Below, one piece after another: positions 2,120 through 59,289 of a stretch of DNA of 64,000 nucleotides. A program made the translations under genes and the position numbers. Origin of the DNA: a bacterium (lineage in GTDB: Bacteria; Patescibacteriota; Minisyncoccia; Moranbacterales; UBA1568). The notes beneath the pieces are model-generated. The model worked only from the letters and a program-made list of their open reading frames with translations, was not told where the DNA came from and made no database searches. The DNA lies in assembly GCA_021821305.1 (NCBI GenBank), contig JAKACP010000001.1:196934-260933 (forward strand), in the 5' to 3' direction. The number at the start of each line of letters is the position of its first letter. Position 1 is the stretch's first letter.

Positions 2120-2204
2120 GGAAGGGTGGCCGAGAGGCTGAAGGCACGCGCTTGGAAAGCGCGCATACCGCAAGGTATCGCGGGTTCGAATCCCGCCTCT
2201 TCCG
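2120..2204 (+). tRNA. tRNA-Ser (anticodon GGA), class II with a long variable arm
   Basis: Cloverleaf read directly. Acceptor ggaaggg/cctcttcc; anticodon stem cgcgc/gcgcg with loop ttGGAaa; variable arm atacc/ggtat; T-arm gcggg-ttcgaat-cccgc. CCA is not encoded. Confidence 0.8.
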
Positions 2205-2323
2205 CAGGAATGAAAGGGATGAGAAGTTTATGCCCCGGAGGGGTAAATCCCGCCTCTTCCGCAGGAATGAAAGGGATGAGAAGTTTATGCCCCGGAGGGG
2301 TAAATCCCGCCTCTTCCGCGGTC
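2189..2323 (+). repeat. Tandem duplication (59-bp period, ~2.3 copies) of the tRNA-Ser 3' end
   Basis: aatcccgcctcttccgc occurs at 2189, 2247 and 2306. Each copy is preceded by the small palindrome ccccggagggg. Confidence 0.8.
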
Positions 2324-2348
2324 ATGTTCTTTTTTATGGAGGTGAACG

Positions 2349-5430: not shown

Positions 5431-7224
5431 ATGGATTCAACCGCGGTACAGGATATCAAGGCGAGGCTCAATATCGTCGACGTGGTCGGCGGGTACGTGA
5501 GGCTGACCAAATCGGGTACGCACTGGAAGGCGTGCTGTCCGTTTCACAACGAGAAGTCGCCGTCGTTCATGGTGAACGAGGAACGGCAGATCTTCCATTG
5601 TTTCGGCTGTGGCAAGGGCGGGGACATGTTCTCGTTCGTCGAGGAGATCGAAGGCGTGGACTTCCGCGAGGCGCTCCGGCTCCTCGCCGAGAAGGCGGGC
5701 GTGGAATTGCCGAAATACCGCAAGGCGTCGGTGTTCGCGCAAGGCGGCGTCGAGGAACCCGACCGGACCAAGGAAATCCTCGAGCTCTCGACCAAGTTCT
5801 TCGAGACCCAGCTTTGGAGCGGGGAAGGCACGAAGAGCGCGCTTCCCTATCTCCGCGACCGCGGACTCTCGGACGAGAGCATACGGACCTTCCGTCTCGG
5901 ATACGCGCCGGAAGGATGGCGGCACCTCCTCGATTTCCTCGTCGGCCGCGGCTATCGCGAGGAAGAGCTCGAGCGGGCCGGTCTCGTCATCAAGAAGGAT
6001 GGCGGCGGGCACTACGACCGCTTCCGCGACCGCATCATGTTCCCTATCGGCGATGTTGTCGGGCGGATCATCGGCTATTCCGCGCGCGTCGCGCCCGGAG
6101 GGGATGAAAGCCAGGCCAAATACATAAATACGCCCGAGACGCCCGTCTATCACAAGAGCCGCGCGCTCTATGGCATCTATCAGGCCAAGCAGGCGATGAA
6201 GGAGAAAGGATTCTCGGTCCTCGTCGAGGGGAACATGGATGTCATCGCCTGCCATCAGGCGGATATCCGTAATACGGTCGCCGTATCGGGGACGGCGCTC
6301 ACCGTCGAACAGCTCGATATGCTCAAGCGCTACGGAAACGGGATACGGCTGTTTTTCGACATGGATGGCGCGGGACAGGCCGCTTCGTGGAAGAGCTCGC
6401 TCCTCGCACTCGAAAAGGAGATGGAAGTGTCGATCATCGCGCTTCCGCATGGCAAGGATGCGGCCGACGCGGCCAAGGAGGACCCGGAGTCGCTCCGAGA
6501 GGCGGCGACACACGCGGTCCCGGTCGCGCAGTACTTCCTCGACAAGCTCCGAGCCGCCAATGACGCCAAAACACCCGCCGGAAAGCGCCGTATCGCCGAA
6601 GGATTCGCCCCCCTTCTGGCCTCCATGCGGAACCGGATCGAGCACGCCCATTGGCGCAAGGAACTGGCGCAGACGCTGGGTGTGGAAGAAAAAGTGCTTT
6701 CGGATGTACTACAGAGCGAAATCCTTGAAAAGCGGGAAATCGTCCCAAAAGGAGAGAAACAGGCACCCGAACCCAGCCGTCCAACATTCGTGACGCGCTC
6801 CGGCGTACTCCGGGATCGGATTGTGGGGCTGCTTCTCCTCGACGGGTCGCTCATGGACAAGGAATCCGTGGACGAACCGATAGGGGGATTCCTGTCAGGT
6901 GACGCGTTTTTCGGGATCGTATCAGAAAAAGGGGAGGGCGAGGCGTTTTCGCGAATTGATGGCGAAGCGCAGAAGCGTCGTGCGGCAGAATTGATGTTCG
7001 AGGCGGAAAAGCTCTTTGAGGGGAACGAGGCCGACGGTGAATTCGACCGAAACGAGCGCAAAACGAAGGTATTCCGGGAACTTCTCCGTGACCTTGCCAT
7101 CGAACTGCGCCGGGACGAACGGACAAAGATCGCTCAGGCGCTCGAGGAGGCAAGGAAGTCCGGTGACAAATCACTCGAACGCGAGCTCATGGAGCAGTTT
7201 CGGGAGATCTCGCGGGAAAATTGA
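5431..7224 (+). CDS. dnaG: DNA primase
   Basis: Zinc-finger CCPFHNEKSPSF...CFGCG, a TOPRIM region (EGNMDV), and the conserved dnaG-rpoD gene order. Confidence 0.9.
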   Translation: MDSTAVQDIKARLNIVDVVGGYVRLTKSGTHWKACCPFHNEKSPSFMVNEERQIFHCFGCGKGGDMFSFVEEIEGVDFREALRLLAEKAGVELPKYRKASVFAQGGVEEPDRTKEILELSTKFFETQLWSGEGTKSALPYLRDRGLSDESIRTFRLGYAPEGWRHLLDFLVGRGYREEELERAGLVIKKDGGGHYDRFRDRIMFPIGDVVGRIIGYSARVAPGGDESQAKYINTPETPVYHKSRALYGIYQAKQAMKEKGFSVLVEGNMDVIACHQADIRNTVAVSGTALTVEQLDMLKRYGNGIRLFFDMDGAGQAASWKSSLLALEKEMEVSIIALPHGKDAADAAKEDPESLREAATHAVPVAQYFLDKLRAANDAKTPAGKRRIAEGFAPLLASMRNRIEHAHWRKELAQTLGVEEKVLSDVLQSEILEKREIVPKGEKQAPEPSRPTFVTRSGVLRDRIVGLLLLDGSLMDKESVDEPIGGFLSGDAFFGIVSEKGEGEAFSRIDGEAQKRRAAELMFEAEKLFEGNEADGEFDRNERKTKVFRELLRDLAIELRRDERTKIAQALEEARKSGDKSLERELMEQFREISREN

Positions 7225-7364: not shown

Positions 7365-8774
7365 ATGAAGAAAAAGCCGATCCAGAAGAAGACCAAGAAG
7401 GATATCCGCAGGAAACCGGCCGCCAAGAAACCGGCCGCGAAGAAATCCGCGCCGAAAAAGAAGCCGGTGGTCAGGAAACCTGCTCCGAAGAAGTCCGTGA
7501 AGAAGGCCGTGGCCGGAAAAAAGAAGGTCGCACCGAAGGCGTCGAAAAAGAAAGGCTCCAAGCCCGCGGCCAAGAAACCGGCCGCGAAGAAACCGACCCA
7601 GAAAAAATCACAGCCGAAAAAGACCGCCCGGAAACCGGAATCCGCCGCGAAGAAGGCCAAGGCGGCAATCATGGAGGGAAAGCAGGAGAGCGCGTTCGCC
7701 GAGCTCATCACCCGCGGCAAACAGCGCGGATTCGTGACGGAAGATGAGATCATCCACATCCTCCCGGACGTCGAGACCGATCTCGACGCGCTCGAGCGGC
7801 TCTACGGCGAGCTTGAGGAGGCCGGCGTGCGCGTGGCCGGATCCGACGAGATACTCAAGGTCGAGACCGACCGTATCGCCGATGATTTCGGGAAAAAGGA
7901 AGCCGCCGCCAAGAAGCCGTCGCGTCGTGCGGAGTCGGATGAGGACACCTCGGACCTCGTCCAGATGTACCTTCGCGAGATCGGCCGCGTCGCGCTCCTC
8001 ACCGGCGAGGAGGAAGTGAAGTACGCCAAGCTCATCGAGAAGGGCGATATGGTCGCCAAACAGCGGCTCACCGAGGCCAACCTCCGGCTCGTCGTCTCCA
8101 TCGCCAAGAAGTACGTCGGCCGCTCGCACAACCTCTCCCTCCTCGACCTCATCCAGGAGGGCAATCTCGGACTCTTCCGCGCGGTGGAGAAGTTCGACTA
8201 CCGCAAGGGATACAAGTTCTCGACCTACGCGACGTGGTGGATCCGTCAGGCGATCACCCGCGCGCTCGCCGATCAGTCCCGCACCATCCGTATCCCGGTG
8301 CACATGGTTGAGACCATCAACAAGTATTCCCAGGTGACGCGTCGCCTCGTCCAGGAGCTCGGCCGCGAGCCGCTTCCCGAGGAGATCGCCGCGGAAATGG
8401 GGATGGAGGTCGACAAGGTCCGCCACATCCAGAAGATCTCGCAGGAGACCGTCTCGCTCGAGACCTCCGTCGGCGACTCGGACGACGATTCGGTGCTCGG
8501 CGACTTCATCGAGGACACCGAGACTGTCATGCCGCACCAGTCGGCCGCCCGCAAGCTCCTCAAGGAGCATATCGGGGCTATCCTCGACGAGCTGACCCCG
8601 CGCGAGCAGAAGATCCTCAAGATCCGCTTCGGACTCGAGGACGGTATCACGCATACCCTCGAGGAGGTCGGACAGGAATTCGGCGTGACCCGCGAGCGTA
8701 TCCGCCAGATCGAGGCCAAGGCCCTCGAGAAGATCCGCGAGCACGACCACGTCAAGAAGCTCCGACACTACTAA
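7365..8774 (+). CDS. rpoD: RNA polymerase sigma factor RpoD with an N-terminal lysine-rich (KKPAAKK) extension
   Basis: Regions 1.2 through 4 are present: [20 protein letters not shown] and a 4.2 HTH ([20 protein letters not shown]). The N-terminal ~100 aa is a KKPAAKK-repeat tail. Confidence 0.9.
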
Positions 8775-21716: not shown

Positions 21717-23843
21717 ATGTCGAATCCGAAGAAACAGGGGAAGAGGAGTCGCATCCCCGAGAAAGTCCCGGGTTCGACCCGCACGAAGGAAGCGAAGAAG
21801 CCTCCGGTGTCGCCGTTCCGATACATCGTGAAGCGCGGCGGGCGAAAGGTACGGTTCGACGGGAAGAAGATCGCCGTCGCGGTCGGGAAGGCGTTCGCCG
21901 CGACCGGCGAGGGGGGCGAGGCGGAGGCGAAGCGCGTGGCCGCGAAGGTGGTGAGCCTCCTCCGGAAGGACATCGGCAGGGACGGCATACCGACGGTGGA
22001 GGGCGTACAGGACATGGTGGAACGGGTGCTCATGATCCTCGACTTCGAGGAGACGGCCAAGTCTTACATACTTTACCGTGAGGAGCACGCCCGGCTCCGC
22101 GAGATGGAGAAGGCGCTCGAGCTCTCCTCGGATCTCGTCGACCGGTACCTCCGCGAGCTCGATTGGCGGGTCCGGGAGAACGCGAACATGTCCTATTCCC
22201 TCCAGGGGCTCAACAATTACATCTCCTCGATCGTCAGCTCGAAGTACTGGATGAACAAGGTGTATCCGCGCGAGATACGCGACGCGCACGAGGGCGGCGA
22301 CCTACATCTCCACGATCTCCAGCTCGTCTCCGCGTACTGCTGCGGCTGGGATCTCCAGGACCTCATACGGCGCGGCTTTACCGGTGTTCCCGGGAAAGTG
22401 TCGTCGAGGCCGGCCAAGCACCTCTCGGTCATTCTGGGGCAGATGGTCAATTTCATCTATACGCTCCAAGGCGAGGTCGCCGGCGCGCAGGCGTTCTCGA
22501 ATTTCGATACGCTGCTCGCCCCCTTCGTCCGACGCGACCGACTCTCGTACGCACAGGTCAAACAGGAGATCCAGTCCTTCGTCTTCAACATGAACATCTC
22601 GACGCGGGTCGGATTCCAGACCCCGTTCTCGAACATCACGCTCGATATCACGTGTCCCAAGGCGCTCGCCAAGGAAGCGGTCGTCATGGGTGGCGAGCCG
22701 CAGAACGAGACCTACGGCGAATTCCAGGAAGAGATGGACATGATCAACCGCGCATTCGCCGAGGTGATGATGGAGGGGGATTCCGAGGGGCGCGTCTTCA
22801 CGTTCCCCATCCCGACCTACAACATCGGCAAGGACTTCGACTGGGACGACCCGCGGTACCTTCCCATCTGGGAGATGACCGCCAAATACGGCATCCCGTA
22901 TTTCGCGAACTTCGTGAATTCCGACATGGATCCGGAGGACGCGCGGAGCATGTGCTGTCGGCTCCGGCTCGACAACCGCGAGCTCCACAAGCGCGGTGGC
23001 GGACTCTTCGGCGCGGCTCCGCTCACCGGTTCGATCGGGGTCGTGACGATCAATCTCCCGCGTCTCGGCCGTACGGCGGAAAGCGAGAAGGAGTTCTTCG
23101 CCAAGCTCGATACGCTCATGGATATCGCCCAAGAAAGCCTCGAAATCAAGCGGAAACTGGTCGAGAAGCTCACCGATCAGGGATTGTATCCCTATACCAG
23201 GTTCTATCTCGCGCCGATCAAGGCCCGCCGGGGGGAATACTGGTCGAACCATTTCTCGACCATCGGCTTGGTCGGCATGAACGAGGCGGCGCAGAACCTT
23301 CTCGGGACCGACATCACGACCGCGAAGGGACAGCGGTTCGCCGGCAAGGTGCTGACCCACATGCGCAAGCGCATCATCGGGTATCAGAAGGCGACGGGCA
23401 ATCTCTACAATCTCGAAGCGACACCGGCGGAGGGGACATCATATCGGCTGGCACAGCTCGACCAGGCGAGGTACAAGGATATCGTCTTCGCGAACGCCGA
23501 GGCGGTGCGGGAGACGGGAGCGGCTCCCTACTACACCAATTCCTCGCACATCCCGGTCGGCCACACGGATGACATCTTCGAGGCGCTCCGCCTCCAAGAC
23601 GACCTCCAGACCAAATATACCGGCGGGACGGTGCTGCACGGCTTTCTCGGGGAGAGAATGTGGGATGCGGAGGCGACCCGGAACCTGGTCCGGAAGATCG
23701 CGGAGAACTATCGGCTCCCGTATTTCACCCTGACGCCGACTTTTTCCGTCTGCCCCGCGCACGGCTATGTCGCCGGCGAACACCATACCTGCCCCCGCTG
23801 TGTCGCGGAGCCGACACAACAAAAATATTCGACCATCGGATGA
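21717..23843 (+). CDS. nrdD: Anaerobic ribonucleoside-triphosphate reductase, main body (ATP-cone + barrel; glycyl-radical domain missing)
   Basis: N-terminal ATP-cone (KVRFDGKKIAVAV) and a class III RNR core. The ORF ends in a partial Zn ribbon (CPAHG...CPRC) with no RVxGY glycyl-radical motif. Confidence 0.85.
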   Translation: MSNPKKQGKRSRIPEKVPGSTRTKEAKKPPVSPFRYIVKRGGRKVRFDGKKIAVAVGKAFAATGEGGEAEAKRVAAKVVSLLRKDIGRDGIPTVEGVQDMVERVLMILDFEETAKSYILYREEHARLREMEKALELSSDLVDRYLRELDWRVRENANMSYSLQGLNNYISSIVSSKYWMNKVYPREIRDAHEGGDLHLHDLQLVSAYCCGWDLQDLIRRGFTGVPGKVSSRPAKHLSVILGQMVNFIYTLQGEVAGAQAFSNFDTLLAPFVRRDRLSYAQVKQEIQSFVFNMNISTRVGFQTPFSNITLDITCPKALAKEAVVMGGEPQNETYGEFQEEMDMINRAFAEVMMEGDSEGRVFTFPIPTYNIGKDFDWDDPRYLPIWEMTAKYGIPYFANFVNSDMDPEDARSMCCRLRLDNRELHKRGGGLFGAAPLTGSIGVVTINLPRLGRTAESEKEFFAKLDTLMDIAQESLEIKRKLVEKLTDQGLYPYTRFYLAPIKARRGEYWSNHFSTIGLVGMNEAAQNLLGTDITTAKGQRFAGKVLTHMRKRIIGYQKATGNLYNLEATPAEGTSYRLAQLDQARYKDIVFANAEAVRETGAAPYYTNSSHIPVGHTDDIFEALRLQDDLQTKYTGGTVLHGFLGERMWDAEATRNLVRKIAENYRLPYFTLTPTFSVCPAHGYVAGEHHTCPRCVAEPTQQKYSTIG

Positions 23844-23854
23844 GGAATATTTTT

Positions 23855-23992
23855 GAAAGCACAGGTCACAGAACACAAAACGCCAAACAAGACACAAAAT
23901 ATGAAATACAAACATGAAACCAAACATCCGCTTGTGCTTTGAGAATTGTGTTTTGTTTGGATTTTTGTGCTTTCGAACTTTGTGTTTTTAGC
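23855..23992. repeat. Family-2 AT-rich A/C-rich palindromic element, copy D, between the nrdD body and the glycyl-radical ORF
   Basis: Arms cacaaaacgccaaacaagacacaaaat / attgtgttttgtttggatttttgtg. Similar to copies at 45301 and 48456. Confidence 0.6.
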
Positions 23993-24021
23993 AAAAATAA
24001 GTAATACGTAACAATAAAAGT

Positions 24022-24270
24022 ATGCGGTGCCATGATTGCGGAAAGGAGCTCGTGAAGGGGGCGGAGTACATGCCGTATCGGGTCGGAGATAGCGGGTTCG
24101 CCAAGTGTCGGGCGTGCCACGAGGCGGATCCGGTGCTCCGCGGCTTCCAGGAGGCCGAGGTCTACTCGCGCGTCGTCGGCTATATCCGCCCGGTCAGACA
24201 GTGGAACAAGGGCAAGCAGGCGGAGTTCGGCGACCGGAAGGAATATGTGGCGGAAGGTCGCGCGTGCTAG
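24022..24270 (+). CDS. Stand-alone NrdD C-terminal glycyl-radical domain (Zn ribbon + RVVGY...WNKGKQAEFGDR)
   Basis: 82-aa ORF with CxxC...CxxC followed by the class III RNR glycyl-radical motif SRVVGYIRPVRQWNKGKQAEF. Confidence 0.6.
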   Translation: MRCHDCGKELVKGAEYMPYRVGDSGFAKCRACHEADPVLRGFQEAEVYSRVVGYIRPVRQWNKGKQAEFGDRKEYVAEGRAC

Positions 24271-24274
24271 ATAC

Positions 24275-24445
24275 GCCCGCTCAACCCGGATTCCTTTCGT
24301 TCCCGACCGCATCCTCGCCGCCCGGTTTCTTCTTTTCAAAAATTTCCCTCAATCGACGGCATCTCGAGGAAATTTTTGAAGAAGAAACGGGCTTACTCGA
24401 GCAATATGCGGTTCCCGGCAAACGAAAGGAATCCGGGTTGAGCGG
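24275..24445. repeat. ~170-bp near-perfect palindrome (nested inverted repeats) upstream of nrdG
   Basis: acgcccgctcaacccggattcctttcgtt ... aacgaaaggaatccgggttgagcgggct. An inner pair ttcttttcaaaaatttcc / ggaaatttttgaagaagaa is nested inside. Confidence 0.7.
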
Positions 24446-24474
24446 GCTCAATTCCTTCTCCGTGACTCATCCGT

Positions 24475-35605: not shown

Positions 35606-36013
35606 ATGCAGGAATCGATCATGACGACGCCGTACGGATACTCCGTGCGTGTCAAGGCCTCCTTCAGGGAGGCGGTGGAGCGGGTGAAGGAGGCGTTCGC
35701 GGCCGAAAAGTTCGGCGTCCTTTCGGAAATCGACGTGAAGGCGAAAATGAAGGAGAAGCTCGGGGAAGATATGGAGGACTATGTCATCCTCGGGATGTGC
35801 AATCCGAAACTCGCGTACGGGGCGCTCCGGATGGAAACCGAGATCGGCCTTCTCCTCCCATGCAACGTGATCGTCTACCGCACGGACGGCGTGACGCATG
35901 TCGCTGCCCAACGGCCGCAGGTGATGCTCGCCGTCACCGGGAACGAATCGATCGTCGCCGCCGCGGAGGAAGCGGACGAGAAAATCCTCCGCGCGATCCG
36001 ATCACTCGTATAG
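35606..36013 (+). CDS. DUF302-domain protein
   Basis: 135-aa family pattern that commonly sits in metal/sulfur operons. Confidence 0.5.
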   Translation: MQESIMTTPYGYSVRVKASFREAVERVKEAFAAEKFGVLSEIDVKAKMKEKLGEDMEDYVILGMCNPKLAYGALRMETEIGLLLPCNVIVYRTDGVTHVAAQRPQVMLAVTGNESIVAAAEEADEKILRAIRSLV

Positions 36014-36028
36014 TGAGAGTTCCGTCAT

Positions 36029-36595
36029 ATGAAAGGAATCCTCATCGTCCTTCTCGTCGTTTTTTCCGTGATGGAAATCATGGCGTGGAAGGTGTATACG
36101 GCTTCGAAAGAGGAGCGGCAAGCGGATAGTTCCGTACAGGGCGTACCGATCTCGGCCCAAACAGGCATCGCGTCGGCTCCTCCCGAGGAGACGGATGCGA
36201 ATATCGCGGAGGATGCGGAACCGTCGGCCGAAAAAAACGTCGCCGACCTGCCCGCCGGCGATACCGGGAGCGAGGAGAACGCGACGTATCCGCGCATCAG
36301 TGTGGAAGAAAAAAACGGAGTGACGGAGCGGACGATCCACATGGGGGTGCGACAATGGGCGTGGGATCCGGCGGAGATACGCGCGAAACAGGGCGAACTC
36401 GTGCGGCTCGTGATCCACAACGCCGACGTGCGGCACGCGATCGTCATACCCGATCTCGGCGTCGAGGCGGATATTCCCGAAGAGGGAGCTATCGTCGAAT
36501 TCACCGCGTCCCGGCGAGGGACATTCGATTTCCTGTGTGCCACCTATTGCGGGACGGGCCATGCCATGATGCAGGGGAGAATAGTCATCGAATGA
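36029..36595 (+). CDS. Membrane-anchored cupredoxin with a CuA-like Cys-x3-Cys-x3-His-x2-Met site
   Basis: C-terminal FLCATYCGTGHAMMQG. Confidence 0.6.
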   Translation: MKGILIVLLVVFSVMEIMAWKVYTASKEERQADSSVQGVPISAQTGIASAPPEETDANIAEDAEPSAEKNVADLPAGDTGSEENATYPRISVEEKNGVTERTIHMGVRQWAWDPAEIRAKQGELVRLVIHNADVRHAIVIPDLGVEADIPEEGAIVEFTASRRGTFDFLCATYCGTGHAMMQGRIVIE

Positions 36596-36797
36596 TTCGC
36601 CGCAAGCAAATCTCCGCATCTCTTGTAGTAAGGGAGAGAGACTGCTCTTGTGTGCCCACCTCCATTTTTAAACGATCCGCGCGAGCACTCATATGAACCC
36701 TCCGGTTGCCCTTACGGCTGGCCGTGCGACCGATGCGGCCTTGGTGAAAATGGCTGGGCTGCATTAAGTATTTTGATAGAGGAAAGAGGTGAAACAT

Positions 36798-36941
36798 ATG
36801 ATGGGATATTATTACGGCGACATGATGGGTGGCTCCGGGTGGGGCGCGTGGCCTTTGTTCGGGTCGGTGCTTTACGTGCTCGTGCTCGTGCTCATGGTGC
36901 TCGGTATCGTCGCGCTGTGGAAGTACATCGCGAAGAAGTGA
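36798..36941 (+). CDS. 47-aa single-TM peptide resembling the N-terminus of the SHOCT protein at 31268
   Basis: MMGYYYGDMMGGSGWGAWPLF...VLVL...LWKYIAKK parallels [19 protein letters not shown]...ALVKWIA. Confidence 0.3.
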   Translation: MMGYYYGDMMGGSGWGAWPLFGSVLYVLVLVLMVLGIVALWKYIAKK

Positions 36942-45300: not shown

Positions 45301-45446
45301 CTTCGAAAACACGGTTTTCAAAACACAAAAAGCCAAACAAAACACGAAGCAAATACTGAAAGCACAAACCTCGCAATCTCGAAGTTTGTGCTTTGTATTT
45401 TGTGATTTGTTTGGACTTTGTGCTCTGTGCTTTGTGTTTTTTTGAT
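45301..45446. repeat. Family-2 AT-rich A/C-rich palindromic element, copy E
   Basis: Arms caaaacacaaaaagccaaacaaaacacgaagc / gtttgtgctttgtattttgtgatttgtttggactttgtgct. It starts at the xseB stop codon. Confidence 0.6.
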
Positions 45447-45484
45447 GGTATACTGGAAGAGAAAATACACACAAACGATACCGT

Positions 45485-48455: not shown

Positions 48456-48575
48456 AAAAGAAAAACACAAATTTCAAAAAACAAAAACCAAACAAAGCAC
48501 AAATCCTAAAACACAAGCGGTTTGTAGACTGTGTTTTGTTTGGCTTTTTGTGTACCGTGTTTTGTGCTTTTGAAA
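48456..48575. repeat. Family-2 AT-rich A/C-rich palindromic element, copy F
   Basis: Arms aaacacaaatttcaaaaaacaaaaaccaaacaaagcac / gtgttttgtttggctttttgtgtaccgtgttttgtgc. It fits exactly between the ferredoxin stop and the DUF59 start. Confidence 0.6.
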
Positions 48576-48845
48576 TTACTCGGGGAATACCTGCTTTCCG
48601 TCCTTGTCCTTGATGATGATCGCGGCGACGGGGCAGGATCGGGCGGCATTGAGGATGGTGTCGGTCGAATCCTCGTCGGCCGTCGCGAGGACGGTCGCCT
48701 TGCCCTCGTCGTCGAGCCCGAACGTCTTGGGAGCCATCGCGGTGCAGGGCGCCGCGCCGATGCAGACATTGCGGTCGACTTCCACCGTCCAGCCGTTGGC
48801 GAGAGTGACCGGTCCGCTCGGTTTCGATTCGTCTTTGAGAGCCAT
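48576..48845 (-). CDS. Single-cluster 4Fe-4S ferredoxin
   Basis: CIGAAPC...C pattern; 89 aa. Confidence 0.7.
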   Translation of the reverse strand: MALKDESKPSGPVTLANGWTVEVDRNVCIGAAPCTAMAPKTFGLDDEGKATVLATADEDSTDTILNAARSCPVAAIIIKDKDGKQVFPE

Positions 48846-50639: not shown

Positions 50640-51887
50640 TCAGATATTGAAAATCTTTCTCGCGTCACGCATGCCGTCTATCAGCCGGTCGACGTCGCCC
50701 TCTTCGGTATAGACCGAAAAACTCACGCGCGCGGTGGCGGGGATATCGAGCGCGCGGTGGAGCGGCGCGGCGCAGTGCTCGCCGGCACGGATGGCGATAT
50801 TCTTTTCGCCGAGTACCTGGGCGAGGTCGTGCGGGTGTACGCCGGAAAGCGTGAAGGAAACGAGCCCGCCGCGATCTTCCGCCTTTTCGGGGCCGTAGAT
50901 CGTTATGTCGGCTCCGAAGGAGGATCGCAGTCTGTCGAGAGCGTAGCGGGTGATTCCGATCTCGTGTTCCCGTATGGCGCTTCCGCCTATCCCCCCGATG
51001 AAGTCGATCGCCGCACCGAAACCGATGATGGCGGCGATATCCGGCGTTCCCGCCTCGAAGCGATGAGGGATGTCTTTGTAAATGGAAGCGCAAGCCCGCC
51101 CCGCCGCAGGCGGGTTCGGGTAAACATCCAGCACCATGCCGCCGCCCACCTGATAGGGCGGGAGCGTTTCGAGGATTCCGCGCTTCCCATAGAGGATTCC
51201 GACGCCGGTCGGGCCGAACATCTTGTGTCCCGAGAAGGCGAGGAAATCGCAATCCCACTCGCGCACATCGATCGCGACATGTCCCGCGGCCTGGGCGGCG
51301 TCGACGATCGTCAGGATCCCGGGATTGAGGCGCTTCGCCTCCCGGACGAACGCGGCGACCGGGTTGATCGTCCCGAGAACGTTCGAGACGGCCGGGAACG
51401 CGAAGATGCTTGTCTCGGACCCCACATGGTTCCGAAGTATCTCCATGTCGATGGATCCATCTGCGGAGAGGGGAATGACGCGGAGTTCGGCGCCGCGTTC
51501 CCGCGCGAGCCGCTCCCAGGGGAGGAAGTTCGAATGATGCTCCATCGCGGTCACGACGATGTTGTCGTCCCGTTTCACGCGATCGGCGAGGACGGAGGCG
51601 AGGAGGTTCATCGACTCGGTGGTGCCATGGGTGAAGATGACCTCTTCCGTGTCCGCTCCGATGAAGCGGGCGGTCTTTTCGCGCGTTCCTTCCATCCGCG
51701 CCGTCGTCTCTTCGGCGAGCGGATAGAGCCCGCGCCCGACATTGGTCGAGAGCGTCTCGTAGTATCCGGAGACGGCGTCGATCACGGTCTCGGGCTTGAG
51801 CGCCGTCGCGGCCGAATCAAGATACGTCAGGTCGGGATGATGACGGAAGATGGGGAAATCGTTCTTCATGCCCTGGATGTTTTTCAT
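50640..51887 (-). CDS. sufS: Cysteine desulfurase (group II)
   Basis: PLP-Lys motif SGHKMFGPTGVG and a C-terminal Cys loop (RAGEHCA). Confidence 0.85.
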   Translation of the reverse strand: MKNIQGMKNDFPIFRHHPDLTYLDSAATALKPETVIDAVSGYYETLSTNVGRGLYPLAEETTARMEGTREKTARFIGADTEEVIFTHGTTESMNLLASVLADRVKRDDNIVVTAMEHHSNFLPWERLARERGAELRVIPLSADGSIDMEILRNHVGSETSIFAFPAVSNVLGTINPVAAFVREAKRLNPGILTIVDAAQAAGHVAIDVREWDCDFLAFSGHKMFGPTGVGILYGKRGILETLPPYQVGGGMVLDVYPNPPAAGRACASIYKDIPHRFEAGTPDIAAIIGFGAAIDFIGGIGGSAIREHEIGITRYALDRLRSSFGADITIYGPEKAEDRGGLVSFTLSGVHPHDLAQVLGEKNIAIRAGEHCAAPLHRALDIPATARVSFSVYTEEGDVDRLIDGMRDARKIFNI

Positions 51888-52477
51888 ATGGTGATGAGAG
51901 GATCCCTCTCGTATTTCGCGAGCTCCGGAAACGTCCCGTACCGTCCGATTTCCTCGAACAGGGATTTCCTGAATCCGTCGGCCAACAGGCGCTCGGCCTG
52001 CTTGCCGTCGAGTCCCCTCGTCTTCATGTAGAGGATCGCCTCCTCGGAGAGGGTCCCGGTCGTCGAGGCGTGCTCGCAGGCGACATCGTTCGTCAGTATC
52101 TCGAGCGAGGGGATCGAGACGGCCGACGCCGATTCGGAGAGGAGGAGGTTCCGGTTCTCCTGTTTCGCGTCGGATCCGTCCGCGCCCTTGTCGATGCGGA
52201 TGAGCCCTCCGTAGGAGAGCGAGGACGCGTCCGAAAGCAGACTCTTCACCAGCGCGGAGGATGTCGTGTCCGGAGCCTTGTGGTGCTGGAGGATGTCGAG
52301 CGAGAACTGTCCGTTTCCGGCCCCTTCGAAGAGCGCGAATATGCGCGCTTCCGCGCCTCTCCCGGCGAGCACGAATTCCAGTGTGCCGGAGCGGTTCTTC
52401 ATGAAGAAAACGGCCTTCTCGTTTTCCCCGAGGACATAGCGGTTTTTCTTCGAGTCGGTGATGTCGATGAATCGCAT
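51884..52477 (-). CDS. sufD: SufD-like Fe-S assembly protein (short form)
   Basis: C-terminal SufBD beta-helix region; lies between sufB and sufS. Confidence 0.6.
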   Translation of the reverse strand: MRFIDITDSKKNRYVLGENEKAVFFMKNRSGTLEFVLAGRGAEARIFALFEGAGNGQFSLDILQHHKAPDTTSSALVKSLLSDASSLSYGGLIRIDKGADGSDAKQENRNLLLSESASAVSIPSLEILTNDVACEHASTTGTLSEEAILYMKTRGLDGKQAERLLADGFRKSLFEEIGRYGTFPELAKYERDPLITI

Positions 52478-52480
52478 AGG

Positions 52481-53890
52481 TCAGCCGATAGAGCCTTTCA
52501 TCTCGAGGTCCATGAGCCGGTTGAGCTCGATGGAATATTCGAGCGGGATTTCGCGCGCGACCGGTTCGATGAAGCCGTTGACGAGGAGCCCCTCGGCGTC
52601 ATCTTCCGATATCCCGCGGGAGGCGAGGTAGAAGAGCTTGTCGAGCGAGAGCTTCTCGACGCGCGCCTCGTGCTCGATACGGGCGTCCTTGGATCGGATC
52701 CGCATCGTCGGGTACGTGTCGGAACGGGATTGCGGGTCGAGGAGGAGCGCATCGCAGACCACCGAGGAAGAGGCCCGCTTGGCTCCGGGGGCGACATGGA
52801 CGAGTCCGCGATAGGATGTCCGACCGCCGTCCTTGGAGATGGATTTCGACACGATGCGCGACGAAGTGTCGCTCGCGAGGTGGACCATCTTCGCGCCGGC
52901 GTCCTGATGCTGGTCCTTACCGGCGAACGCGATCGAGAGCACCTCGCCGCGGGCGCCCCGGCCCGCGAGGTAGACGGCCGGGTATTTCATGGTCACGCCG
53001 GAGCCGATGTTGCAGTCGATCCATTCCATGATCGCACCTTCTTCGGCGCGGGCGCGCTTGGTGACGAGGTTGTAGATGTTCTTGCTCCAGTTCTGGACGG
53101 TCGTGTATCGGACGCGCGCGTTCTTGTGGACGAAGATCTCGACGACCGCGGCGTGGAGCGACGCGGAAGTGTAGATGGGAGCGGTGCATCCTTCGATATA
53201 GTGGACCGAAGAGCCCTCCTCGGCGATGATGATGGTGCGCTCGAACTGTCCGAAACGTTCCGCATTGATCCGGAAATAGGCCTGGAGCGGGAGGGTCACC
53301 TTCACGTTTTTCGGGACATACACGAATGATCCTCCCGACCAGACGGCGGAATTGAGGGCCGCGAACTTGTTGTCGCCCTGGGGGATGAGGGTGCCGAAAT
53401 ATTTCCGGACCAATGCCGGATACTTCCTGACCGCGGTGTCCATGTCGCAGAAGATCACGCCCTTCTTCGAGAGTTCCTTCTGGATGCTCTCGTAGACGAC
53501 TTCCGATTCGTACTGCGCGGAGACGCCGGCGAGGAACTTCTTCTCCGCCTCGGGGACGCCGATCTTGTCGTAGGTGTCCTTGATTTCCTGAGGGAGGTCG
53601 GCCCATGCGTCGGCGTTGCCCTCGGACGCCTTGAGGTAGTAGGTGATGTCCTGGAAGTCTATCTTCGAGAGATCGGCTCCGAAGCTCGGCACCTTTTTCT
53701 TCTTGAACACCTCGAAGCTTTCCAGCCGGTACTTCCGCATCCACGCGGGTTCACCTTTCATGTCGGATATTTCCGCCACGATGCGCGCCGAAAGTCCGGG
53801 ACGGGTCTTTTTGACCGATCGTTCCGGCATCGAAAATCCGTAGCGGTAATCGAAATCGATGGATTCCTGTTTCATGTCAGATATTTTCAA
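52481..53890 (-). CDS. sufB: Fe-S cluster assembly protein SufB
   Basis: Conserved SufB core (~470 aa). Confidence 0.85.
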   Translation of the reverse strand: MKISDMKQESIDFDYRYGFSMPERSVKKTRPGLSARIVAEISDMKGEPAWMRKYRLESFEVFKKKKVPSFGADLSKIDFQDITYYLKASEGNADAWADLPQEIKDTYDKIGVPEAEKKFLAGVSAQYESEVVYESIQKELSKKGVIFCDMDTAVRKYPALVRKYFGTLIPQGDNKFAALNSAVWSGGSFVYVPKNVKVTLPLQAYFRINAERFGQFERTIIIAEEGSSVHYIEGCTAPIYTSASLHAAVVEIFVHKNARVRYTTVQNWSKNIYNLVTKRARAEEGAIMEWIDCNIGSGVTMKYPAVYLAGRGARGEVLSIAFAGKDQHQDAGAKMVHLASDTSSRIVSKSISKDGGRTSYRGLVHVAPGAKRASSSVVCDALLLDPQSRSDTYPTMRIRSKDARIEHEARVEKLSLDKLFYLASRGISEDDAEGLLVNGFIEPVAREIPLEYSIELNRLMDLEMKGSIG

Positions 53891-58287: not shown

Positions 58288-59289
58288 ATGCGCACCGCGT
58301 TGTCAACAGGGAAAATCGGGTTTCTCGAACGTGTACTCCGTGATTTTTTTCGCCGGGCCGGACGGGAACACCTGCCGTGGCGCGCACGGACCGTCGGCGC
58401 GTACGAGATCTGGGTGAGCGAGATCATGCTTCAGCAGACCCAGGTATCCCGCGTGATCGGGTATTATGAAAAATTTCTCGTACGATTTCCGACGGTCGGA
58501 TCGCTCGCGAAAGCTACGTGGGAGGAGTTCCTCCCGTACTACCGGGGACTCGGGTACTATGCGCGCGGGCGGAACATGCTCGCGACCGCGAAGATGATCG
58601 TCGAAACGTATGACGGAAAATTCCCGAAGGACGTGAACGAGCTCGGGAAGCTCCCGGGCGTCGGGCCGTACACCGCGGCGGCGATCGCGAGTTTCGCCTA
58701 TGGAAGGAATACGATCGCGTGGGACACCAACCTTCACCGGGTCGTCGGGCGGTTCTTCTTCGGGTCGAGGCGAGCGGATCTTCCGAAGGAGAAATTGGAG
58801 GATATCCTTTCCATGAAGGCGAAGGTGTTCAATGCGGCGATGATGGATTTCGGCTCGGCGATCTGCACCGCGCGGCCGAAATGCGGCGCGTGCCCCCTCT
58901 CGTCGCGATGCGTATATTTTTCCGAAGACGGTCAGAGAGAAAAACAAGAGACAAGACACAAGAAACAAGATACAAAAATATCCAAAACCTCAAATAAAAA
59001 ATCCAAAATCAATTGGAGGGACGCACGAGCGTTCGTGTTCCTGCACGAGAACCACAGGAAATATTATTCGTCGCGCAAGACGAAGTTCGTGCCGTTCGCC
59101 ATCCCGCCGTCACACAACACGCGCGCCGGGGTCAAGGACTGGTTCCGTGATCGCCACGGACTCGAGCTCGCCGTCCGTCCGCCGCACAGGAAGGAAATGG
59201 TCGACGGCAAGCCGACGATCTTCATCAACGCGCAGATCCTTTCCGGAACGCCGGAATTCGCCGTCTTTCCCAAAGGTGTGTTGCCATAA
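58288..59289 (+). CDS. mutY: A/G-specific adenine glycosylase (MutY-like, HhH-GPD + 4Fe-4S) with a Lys-rich insertion and C-terminal extension
   Basis: HhH-GPD motif (LPGVGPYTAAAI) and an Fe-S loop (CTARPKCGACPLSSRC). The insertion QREKQETRHKKQDTKISKTSNKKSKIN is encoded by an A/C-rich stretch. Confidence 0.7.
   Translation: MRTALSTGKIGFLERVLRDFFRRAGREHLPWRARTVGAYEIWVSEIMLQQTQVSRVIGYYEKFLVRFPTVGSLAKATWEEFLPYYRGLGYYARGRNMLATAKMIVETYDGKFPKDVNELGKLPGVGPYTAAAIASFAYGRNTIAWDTNLHRVVGRFFFGSRRADLPKEKLEDILSMKAKVFNAAMMDFGSAICTARPKCGACPLSSRCVYFSEDGQREKQETRHKKQDTKISKTSNKKSKINWRDARAFVFLHENHRKYYSSRKTKFVPFAIPPSHNTRAGVKDWFRDRHGLELAVRPPHRKEMVDGKPTIFINAQILSGTPEFAVFPKGVLP

Follow-up and report, generated by a model that had tools for sequence, protein, structure and literature searches.

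The 64,000-nt stretch of Moranbacterales DNA considered here (positions 196,934 to 260,933 of contig JAKACP010000001.1, hereafter the window) holds three copies of an AT-rich palindromic element, located at 23850-23993, 45301-45446, and 48456-48576, of which the second is the feature under study. On balance, we think it somewhat probable that these elements belong to an old, dispersed, noncoding family of ~120-150-bp palindromic repeats that descended from a small nonautonomous mobile element, similar to a miniature inverted-repeat transposable element (MITE) or a Rickettsia palindromic element (RPE), and that has been retained under selection. Descent from a mobile element is suggested by the asymmetric plan shared by dispersed copies, the variable occupancy of gene junctions, an insertion at the tip of an rRNA helix, and arms that lie in frame within proteins. 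The genomes of the Candidate Phyla Radiation (CPR), or Patescibacteria, are streamlined to ~1 Mb and belong to uncultivated organisms, and their intergenic signals are essentially unknown. A full-text literature search, incomplete in its coverage, gave no mention of the motif or of palindromic or MITE-like repeats in CPR, Patescibacteria, or Parcubacteria, and the family is apparently undescribed so far.

Three copies of the element in the window

The copies were scored with R1, a covariance model built from the element copies of related genomes and run on the 64 kb with filters off. R1 reported exactly three sites in the window, at 113 to 126 bits (E of ~1e-19 to 1e-21), and no further site there at E<=10. 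All three had been noticed, at the same places, in a first-pass annotation made from the sequence alone. That annotation counted three to four copies; the fourth candidate, an A-rich stretch near 58941, is not a family member, since R1 gives nothing there. The arm core GTGTTTTGTTTGG, with two mismatches or fewer allowed, has seven matches in the window against 0.37 expected, and six of these seven are accounted for by the paired arms of the three elements. The elements and their immediate features are as follows.

23850 to 23993, plus strand: element copy 1; R1 118.9 bits (plus) versus 102.3 bits (minus); type II arm (defined below) first
23883 to 23895 and 23948 to 23960, no strand stated: cores of copy 1, matching GTGTTTTGTTTGG
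45301 to 45446, minus strand: element copy 2, the feature under study; R1 126.1 bits (minus; E of 3e-21) versus 99.4 bits (plus)
45333 to 45345, plus strand: left core box of copy 2, CCAAACAAAACAC; exact reverse-complement match to GTGTTTTGTTTGG
45402 to 45414, plus strand: right core box of copy 2, GTGATTTGTTTGG; core match with one mismatch
45446 to 45454, plus strand: -10-like extended box TGGTATACT, read from the sequence; adjoins copy 2 directly on its right, with the korA ATG 31 nt farther downstream
48456 to 48576, minus strand: element copy 3; R1 113 bits (minus) versus 86.8 bits (plus)
48488 to 48500 and 48531 to 48543, no strand stated: cores of copy 3, matching GTGTTTTGTTTGG

Every window element folds into a hairpin with arms of ~50-60 nt, and on either strand this fold is much more stable than those of shuffled controls (z of -2.8 to -7.3); the RNA folds of copy 2 have energies of -48 and -56 kcal/mol (z of -5.8 and -7.3). 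The GC content of the elements is 0.32-0.36, compared to ~0.58 for the window average, which bears out the earlier description of AT-rich hairpins. Within each element the core is inverted, as a 13-nt CCAAACAARRCAC / GTGNTTTGTTTGG pair. On either strand, the 5' half is nearly pure A/C, with CACAAA-type words, and the 3' half is nearly pure G/T, with TTTGTG words. The A/C-before-G/T order is automatic, because such a palindrome reads alike on both strands, and the observation in the first-pass annotation that all copies have the same orientation relative to the sequence thus restates a trivial property of palindromes. The true polarity, taken from the arm subtype and the better-scoring R1 strand, is +, -, - in coordinate order; seen on the plus strand, copy 2 has its type I arm on the left and its type II arm on the right.

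The stops and starts at all three copies agree with the gene-end placement described earlier. Copy 1 is flanked by the stop of the large nrdD open reading frame (ORF), at 23843, and by the start codon of the small one (ATG at 24022). Copy 2 begins right after the xseB stop (45300), and its right end meets the TGGTATACT box, which is flanking context outside the element, with korA downstream. Copy 3 fills the gap from the ferredoxin stop (48576, minus strand) to the ATG of the DUF59/FeS_assembly_P gene (48455, minus strand).

No Shine-Dalgarno-like GGAGG precedes the starts of the element-adjacent genes, nrdG, and korA (regions 45455-45484, 24450-24474, and 48456-48475) or those of counterpart loci, where the leaders are A- or U-rich. 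This suggests that initiation is mostly independent of Shine-Dalgarno sequences in this lineage.

Architecture and arm subtypes

Across the family, full elements measure 100-180 nt and follow a common plan: an AAARCACAAA terminus, CACA(A/G) words, a 22-nt box CACAAAAANCCAAACAAARCAC, a variable center, and then the mirror image, so that the termini are inverted repeats (AAARCACAAA... / ...TTTGTGYTTT). The half-element consensus of 103 arms anchored on the core is aaaaCACAAArCACAGnnCACAAAAAnCCAAACAAArCACA....CAAAaCACAAAc. The core is the most conserved block of the family, near invariant at ~2 bits per position, and conservation drops sharply ~29 nt outside it.

The two arms of an element differ from each other more than arms drawn from different elements do. 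Identity at variable positions was 0.389 within elements and 0.429 between elements, and 2000 of 2000 permutations equaled or exceeded the within-element value. In Moranbacteria-type genomes, each element has one type I arm (CACAAnnnTCAAARCACAAAA), and the opposite arm is of type II (CACAAARCACAGnnCACAAAA). Since its two arms differ systematically, the element has a polarity, which R1 sees as a 15-35-bit gap between strands. The only ORFs in the elements are read-through artifacts of the arms. A/C-only and G/T-only arms have no stop codons, and ORF callers therefore run into them, which is a warning for the annotation of genomes that carry the family.

Taxonomic distribution

A scan for the single-arm pattern across one genome per species yielded 74 loci, and L-numbers below designate loci of other genomes. 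R1 identified ~66 sites with the same architecture in ~15 Patescibacteria metagenome-assembled genomes (MAGs), labeled as Candidatus Moraniibacteriota, Parcubacteria group, Taylorbacteria, or Patescibacteria, with up to ~10 loci from a single MAG. Identical element copies are found on same-species metagenome contigs, and the species is present in samples ERZ534008 and SRR28285720. The window is syntenic with several of the carrier MAGs at 65-83% nucleotide identity, which marks its source as a Moranbacteria-like CPR bacterium. R1 found no element in the non-CPR loci that the 22-nt pattern had matched by chance, nor in L162-L167. The family appears to be specific to Moranbacteria/Parcubacteria-type Patescibacteria, and R1 can be used for a census of it.

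Matches in Lachnospiraceae, Bacteroidota, and other groups were set aside as lone motifs that have no palindrome and are not seen by R1. A link to phages was likewise rejected, as viral contigs yielded just two single-motif chance matches. A KorB-based metagenome scan returned 80 loci, all <=69% identical and none with an element, and is uninformative on empty sites.

Several MAGs labeled "uncultured Bdellovibrionales bacterium" (L020, L024, L029, L043, L046, L055, L059, L063, and L073; CAZIBB01, CAYGEA01, etc.) bear the same element family. They share synteny both with the window and with MAGs of Moranbacteria, at 65-74% nucleotide identity over the xseA-korAB-suf region, and their Bdellovibrionales label is probably a misclassification.

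Occupancy of orthologous junctions

The xseB-korA and fdx-DUF59 copies occupy the same positions in the closest relative (L010/L016), and the fdx-DUF59 copy is also present in the more distant L043, with its arm types flipped. The first-pass annotation had proposed a comparison with empty sites in related genomes, and this comparison was positive. Two junctions that are empty in the window are filled in relatives.

51884 to 51887, minus strand: empty site at the overlap (ATGA) of the csd start and the stop of the sufD-like gene; L016 has a full element there (6434-6579)
52477 to 52481, minus strand: empty site, with 3 nt between the start of the sufD-like gene and the stop of sufB; filled by a full element in L046 and L076

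A third difference is seen after mnmA, where L020 has an element and the window has a different sequence with none. Conversely, the nrdD spacer that contains copy 1 has no element in L162, L164, or L166, in which the gene is split in the same way. Some junctions hold palindromes of other kinds: the xseB-korA site of L043 is occupied by a different palindrome family with purine-rich arms, and the nifU/csd junction has a third palindrome family in L016, compared to 2 nt in the window.

Other palindrome or periodic-repeat families occupy intergenic gaps and rRNA helices of the same CPR genomes (L043 2008-2100, L058 ~1000-1105, L016 5074-5219, L076 1300-1420, and upstream of nrdG in L162/L164). 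One has purine arms, GGAATTAAGAAT... / ...ATTCTTAATTCC; another is of the form ACCAATGA / TCATTGGT; and a third consists of GAAAATTG-type periodic repeats, which are also present in the helix-25-type insertion of the L058 23S rRNA.

Conservation and age

The fdx-DUF59 element of the window is identical to that of L016 at 111 of 120 positions (92.5%), loop included. Between the same two genomes, the flanking genes are 0.53-0.59 identical at four-fold sites and their coding DNA is 0.81-0.86 identical. The xseB-korA spacer is 81% identical to that of L010 over its whole length, and the ~80 nt from the right arm of copy 2 to the korA ATG are near identical. Orthologue comparisons overall gave identities of 0.47-0.59 at four-fold sites. 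Paralogous copies are as similar within MAGs (0.71) as between MAGs (0.70), and the best-matching element pairs are mostly orthologous copies. The family is not a recent invader, because orthologous copies have stayed conserved between species that have nearly saturated synonymous sites. These data show that the copies are old and are kept to the consensus by purifying selection.

Copies within rRNA and proteins

Locus L058, from a Taylorbacteria MAG, has a full 160-nt copy in the apical loop of a 23S rRNA helix, at model positions ~284-288, and a second, paralogous copy just upstream of the 23S 5' end. Because the first of these lies within the 23S rRNA gene, polymerase must read through the element. 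Read outward, the type I arm (UGUGUUUUGAAAAU) bears a possible resemblance to the rRNA boxA; no canonical boxA was recognized upstream of the L058 23S rRNA gene.

Single A/C arms also lie in frame on the coding strand of several genes, namely those for LigA (two MAGs), LeuRS (two positions), UvrA, and TatD, where they encode K/T/Q/N/H-rich peptides. In these cases only the A/C arm is present, never the whole palindrome. The family thus accounts for some rRNA insertions and for some K/T/Q/N-rich insertions in CPR proteins.

Copy 1 and the split nrdD gene

Copy 1 was originally described as an interruption of nrdD, a claim that does not hold, given the nature of the small downstream ORF.

24022 to 24270, plus strand: small nrdD ORF, 82 aa, with a CxxC...CxxC Zn ribbon and an RVVGY glycyl-radical motif (EVYSRVVGYIRPV); conserved stand-alone gene

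This ORF has 537 homologous clusters, and among the matches listed nearly all are 80-100 aa long with a query coverage of 89-100%. The order nrdR, large nrdD, small ORF, and nrdG is shared with L162, L164, and L166, in which the spacers between the large and small nrdD ORFs measure 87-107 nt and contain no element. In L034, from a Moranbacteria MAG, nrdD is not split, and an element stands between it and the downstream nrdG. Since relatives have the split without the element and the small ORF is independent, the element did not split nrdD; copy 1 sits in the preexisting spacer of a conserved two-gene arrangement. Translational bypass over copy 1, from the GGA-TGA end of the large ORF to an in-frame GGA at 24040, was rejected because the small ORF is a conserved independent gene, N-terminal Zn ribbon included, in >500 clusters and because the split exists without the element.

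The anaerobic ribonucleotide reductase of the window thus consists of a large ORF without the glycyl-radical tail (21717-23843) and the 82-aa ORF (24022-24270). Homologues of the small glycyl-radical ORF, of which >500 are stand-alone, occur in Moran-, Parcu-, and Pacebacteria. The large nrdD ORF of L164 keeps its own ...AKQAEFSDRKEF tail, and in that locus the small ORF has the look of an additional, "spare" glycyl-radical domain, somewhat like GrcA/YfiD for pyruvate formate-lyase. A literature search found no paper linking NrdD, the glycyl radical, and CPR. Between the small nrdD ORF and nrdG (24275-24447), a 27-nt perfect GC-rich inverted repeat (24275-24301 / 24421-24447) surrounds a second, nested palindrome, and at the same place relatives have a shorter GC-rich hairpin after a conserved AAAAGATAG(n)GGGGC motif.

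Transcriptional context, RNA structure, and polarity

A consensus terminator scan called no canonical terminator at any of the three window copies. The stems are ~50 bp long, 32-36% GC, and rich in A-U and G-U pairs. Copies in relatives lie within the suf operon, directly before start codons, and three verified copies lie between divergent genes (L026, L051, and L073). The contexts are ~29 tandem, 4 convergent, and 3 divergent, compared to 273, 73, and 72 for background intergenic regions, with no significant depletion of divergent contexts relative to this background. The elements are not canonical intrinsic terminators. From the first-pass proposal of a miniature mobile, REP-like, or terminator-insulator family, the dispersed miniature palindrome family survives; the terminator-insulator part does not sit with the lack of a called terminator or with the copies in the suf operon, in 23S rRNA, and between divergent genes.

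Selection at the RNA level left no trace in the tests applied. There was no excess of G-U pairs over A-C mismatches on the sense strand (97 versus 118), no difference between sense and antisense fold stability (mean, 0.1 kcal/mol; n=35), and no covariation in pairing, as native arm pairs fold no better than chimeric arms. Because the chimeras pair as well, the palindromy comes from both arms matching a sequence consensus and not from compensatory evolution. A search of Rfam gave no match at the elements at the gathering score, and a permissive search returned generic long-hairpin miRNA models only, far below threshold. An outward sigma-70 promoter in the arms was considered and rejected, there being one weak consensus match, with TTGAAA as the -35, which points antisense into xseB.

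The polarity of the elements is weakly aligned with transcription. Among tandem contexts in which one strand is clearly preferred, ~14-16 independent loci have the type II arm after the stop of the upstream gene and the type I arm before the start of the downstream gene, compared to 4 with the opposite arrangement; the loci were curated manually, and by our own arithmetic the binomial p is ~0.01-0.03. Copy 2 is a discordant exception to this bias.

Origin and possible role

On the favored reading of a retained family of mobile-element descent, the element would have been inserted as DNA at gene boundaries and would be cotranscribed with the neighboring genes, as we infer from its positions inside operons and an rRNA gene. 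In the RNA, the arms are predicted to fold into a ~50-bp A-U/G-U-rich hairpin, the base of which would bring the upstream stop and downstream start codons side by side; because the hairpin would join stop and start in this way, insertion may be tolerated even between formerly overlapping genes. The two inverted boxes may be read as sequence, since they are strictly conserved without pairing covariation, and the reader would be a putative trans-acting factor, either a mobilizing protein or a host factor that binds or processes RNA or DNA. The copies that survive probably serve some intercistronic function, for example in processing, stability, or coupling.

A number of observations weigh against a mobile origin. 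The MAG copies include no genome-specific subfamilies or near-identical paralogs and hence give no sign of recent transposition, and we infer mobility solely from the differences in occupancy and the shared asymmetric plan. The flanks showed no target-site duplications of >=4 nt beyond the level of a permuted control: the longest direct repeat between flanks averaged 5.26 nt, compared to 5.14 nt after permutation, a test that 2-3-nt or eroded duplications would escape. No transposase lies between or beside close copies in the loci inspected, and the genes between close element pairs are housekeeping genes (a DegT-type aminotransferase, a glycosyltransferase, RecR, and NifU). MITE and repetitive extragenic palindromic (REP) families are normally specific to a species or genus, and conservation across deep lineages is unusual for them. 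Finally, the presence of different palindrome families at one junction could mean that any hairpin is selected there, and not merely that such sites are permissive.

A rival view is that the elements are primarily host cis-acting elements and not selfish DNA, a reading that we consider possible, if distinctly less than probable. The family would then be a conserved intercistronic punctuation or regulatory module whose two inverted 22-nt boxes and asymmetric I/II arms are read by a conserved CPR factor, with a function in mRNA or rRNA processing, in antitermination, or in starting mRNAs with very short leaders from an outward promoter within the type I arm. It would fit the strength of purifying selection, which acts both on orthologous copies and on the consensus of the family, the copy in the 23S leader, the lack of Shine-Dalgarno-like sequences at downstream genes, the replacement of one palindrome family by another at the same junction in different lineages, and the polarity bias, by which the type I arm stands beside the downstream start, 8-20 nt beyond a conserved TTTGAnnnT. 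However, the flanking genes share no common function, many orthologous junctions work without an element (in the window, the csd/sufD overlap and the abutting sufD/sufB genes), the polarity has exceptions that include the copy at 45301, the sole consensus promoter match points antisense into xseB, and the insertions in frame in proteins and at the rRNA helix tip resemble accidents of a mobile element. More speculative, and in our opinion rather doubtful, is a CPR-specific operon-punctuation system in which a conserved factor would read the inverted CACAAAAANCCAAACAAARCAC boxes and the asymmetric I/II arms, on DNA or on the transcript, and would either process polycistronic mRNA and rRNA precursors or start short-leader mRNAs without Shine-Dalgarno sequences at the type I arm. 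If this were true, the family would be a functional analogue of the tRNA or hairpin punctuation of organelle genomes.

Terminators or insulators, possibly bidirectional, that were selected at the ends of transcription units are unlikely. The elements do form a hairpin on both strands, have a U-rich 3' arm ending in TTTGTGTTTTT, and directly follow stop codons, and copy 2 separates the xseAB unit from what appears to be a korA promoter; yet the scan gave no terminator for any copy, the stems are long with many A-U and G-U pairs instead of short with a high GC content, one full copy is located within a 23S rRNA gene, the suf-operon copies come right before starts with no room for a promoter, and there are three divergent contexts in a distribution that is like the background. 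It is still less likely that the elements are repeats of the REP type, whether in bacterial interspersed mosaic elements (BIMEs) or as REP doublets forming hairpins (REPINs), mobilized by a REP-associated tyrosine transposase (RAYT). Two inverted conserved boxes around a less conserved spacer, a long hairpin, an extragenic location within transcription units, and long-term vertical persistence are all as in REPINs, but the arms are nearly pure A/C or G/T and unable to form a short REP hairpin alone, their ends have no GTAG or CGTC tag, copies within a genome are ~70% identical, unlike REPIN populations, and no Y1 transposase was seen in the loci inspected. Least likely of all, in our estimate, is a role as inverted pairs of DNA uptake signals, of the kind seen in Neisseria or Pasteurellaceae. 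CPR bacteria rely on the uptake of DNA, and a short, near-invariant core that is conserved across related lineages and stands in inverted pairs downstream of genes would suit such a signal. The core occurs about once per 10 kb, however, six of its seven matches in the window are arms of long elements, and an uptake function leaves the ~60-nt structured arms and the I/II asymmetry unexplained.

The pattern as a whole, that is, a family spread across Moranbacteria and Parcubacteria, with 32-36% GC in a 58% GC genome and with conservation that exceeds that of neighboring coding DNA at one orthologous site, points either to an unrecognized cis-acting system or to a very long-lived genomic parasite.

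Other features of the window

The tRNA-Ser(GGA) gene (window 2120-2329) is followed by two perfect 57-nt tandem repeats and a partial third, each of which repeats the tRNA 3' end (AATCCCGCCTCTTCCGCAGG...), as expected for repeated integration or excision at a tRNA attachment site. The ORF at 7365-8774 starts with AKKPAAKK-type repeats rich in lysine, alanine, and proline (15-nt periodic DNA, 7394-7638) and resembles histone H1-like nucleoid proteins. On the same-species contigs L001 and L002, a 338-aa HTH_38/HTH_32 protein is encoded at 815-1831, where the window (~35900-36900) has different genes, which suggests a strain-level insertion difference; this domain pair occurs in IS30-type transposases.

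Comparison with known systems

Intrinsic terminators have a short GC-rich stem with a U tract and are located at 3' ends only, neither of which describes the present elements. The resemblance to integron attC sites is no closer: the termini are unlike GTTRRRY core sites, and the flanking genes are syntenic housekeeping genes, not cassettes. With REPs, BIMEs, and REPINs the family shares extragenic palindromes in operons, two inverted boxes that form a hairpin, and vertical persistence. The repeat unit of those systems, a 20-40-nt imperfect palindrome with a GTAG/CGTC tag, is not found here. The CPR boxes are not self-palindromic, and the arms cannot self-pair because they are almost purely A/C or G/T; the divergence is also much higher, and no RAYT was seen in the loci inspected.

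The full copy of L058, an extended stem-loop in place of the apical loop of a helix, is similar to the intervening sequences (IVSs) that are found in 23S rRNA and removed by RNase III. This position at a helix tip is seen for the L058 copy only. The family also occurs in mRNA intergenic regions, and the site in L058 is not the classical helix-25/45 site; the helix-25-type insert of the same rRNA carries a different repeat family.

The elements have the hallmarks of MITEs in that they are small (120-160 nt), noncoding, and without a transposase gene, have terminal inverted repeats, and are present as dispersed copies (three in 64 kb) with insertion polymorphism, although no parent insertion sequence is known for the CPR elements. 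Correia elements, or NEMIS, of Neisseria and the enterobacterial repetitive intergenic consensus (ERIC) elements of enterobacteria are similar in being 100-200 bp long, with long terminal inverted repeats, cotranscribed, and able to form long RNA hairpins. Correia elements undergo RNase III cleavage and inversion and can have outward promoters (PMC10969869), and the flip in polarity between the orthologous copies of the window and L043 recalls such inversion. Unlike Correia and ERIC elements, the CPR family has no detected TA or other target-site duplication, its copies are old and ~70% identical instead of near identical, and its spread is at the level of a class and not of a genus.

Also among the closest analogues are the RPEs, which are palindromic repeats that also lie in frame inside proteins (PMC10969869). 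Both are palindromes of ~100-150 bp in the reduced genomes of host-dependent bacteria, exist as several families, and are found between genes as well as in frame in housekeeping proteins, as tolerated peptide insertions (PMC10969869). The CPR family is unrelated to RPEs in sequence and taxon, is in frame as the A/C arm only, compared to the whole palindrome of an RPE, has strand-asymmetric arms (A/C versus G/T), and spans much deeper lineages. It is an analogue of the RPEs and not a member of them.

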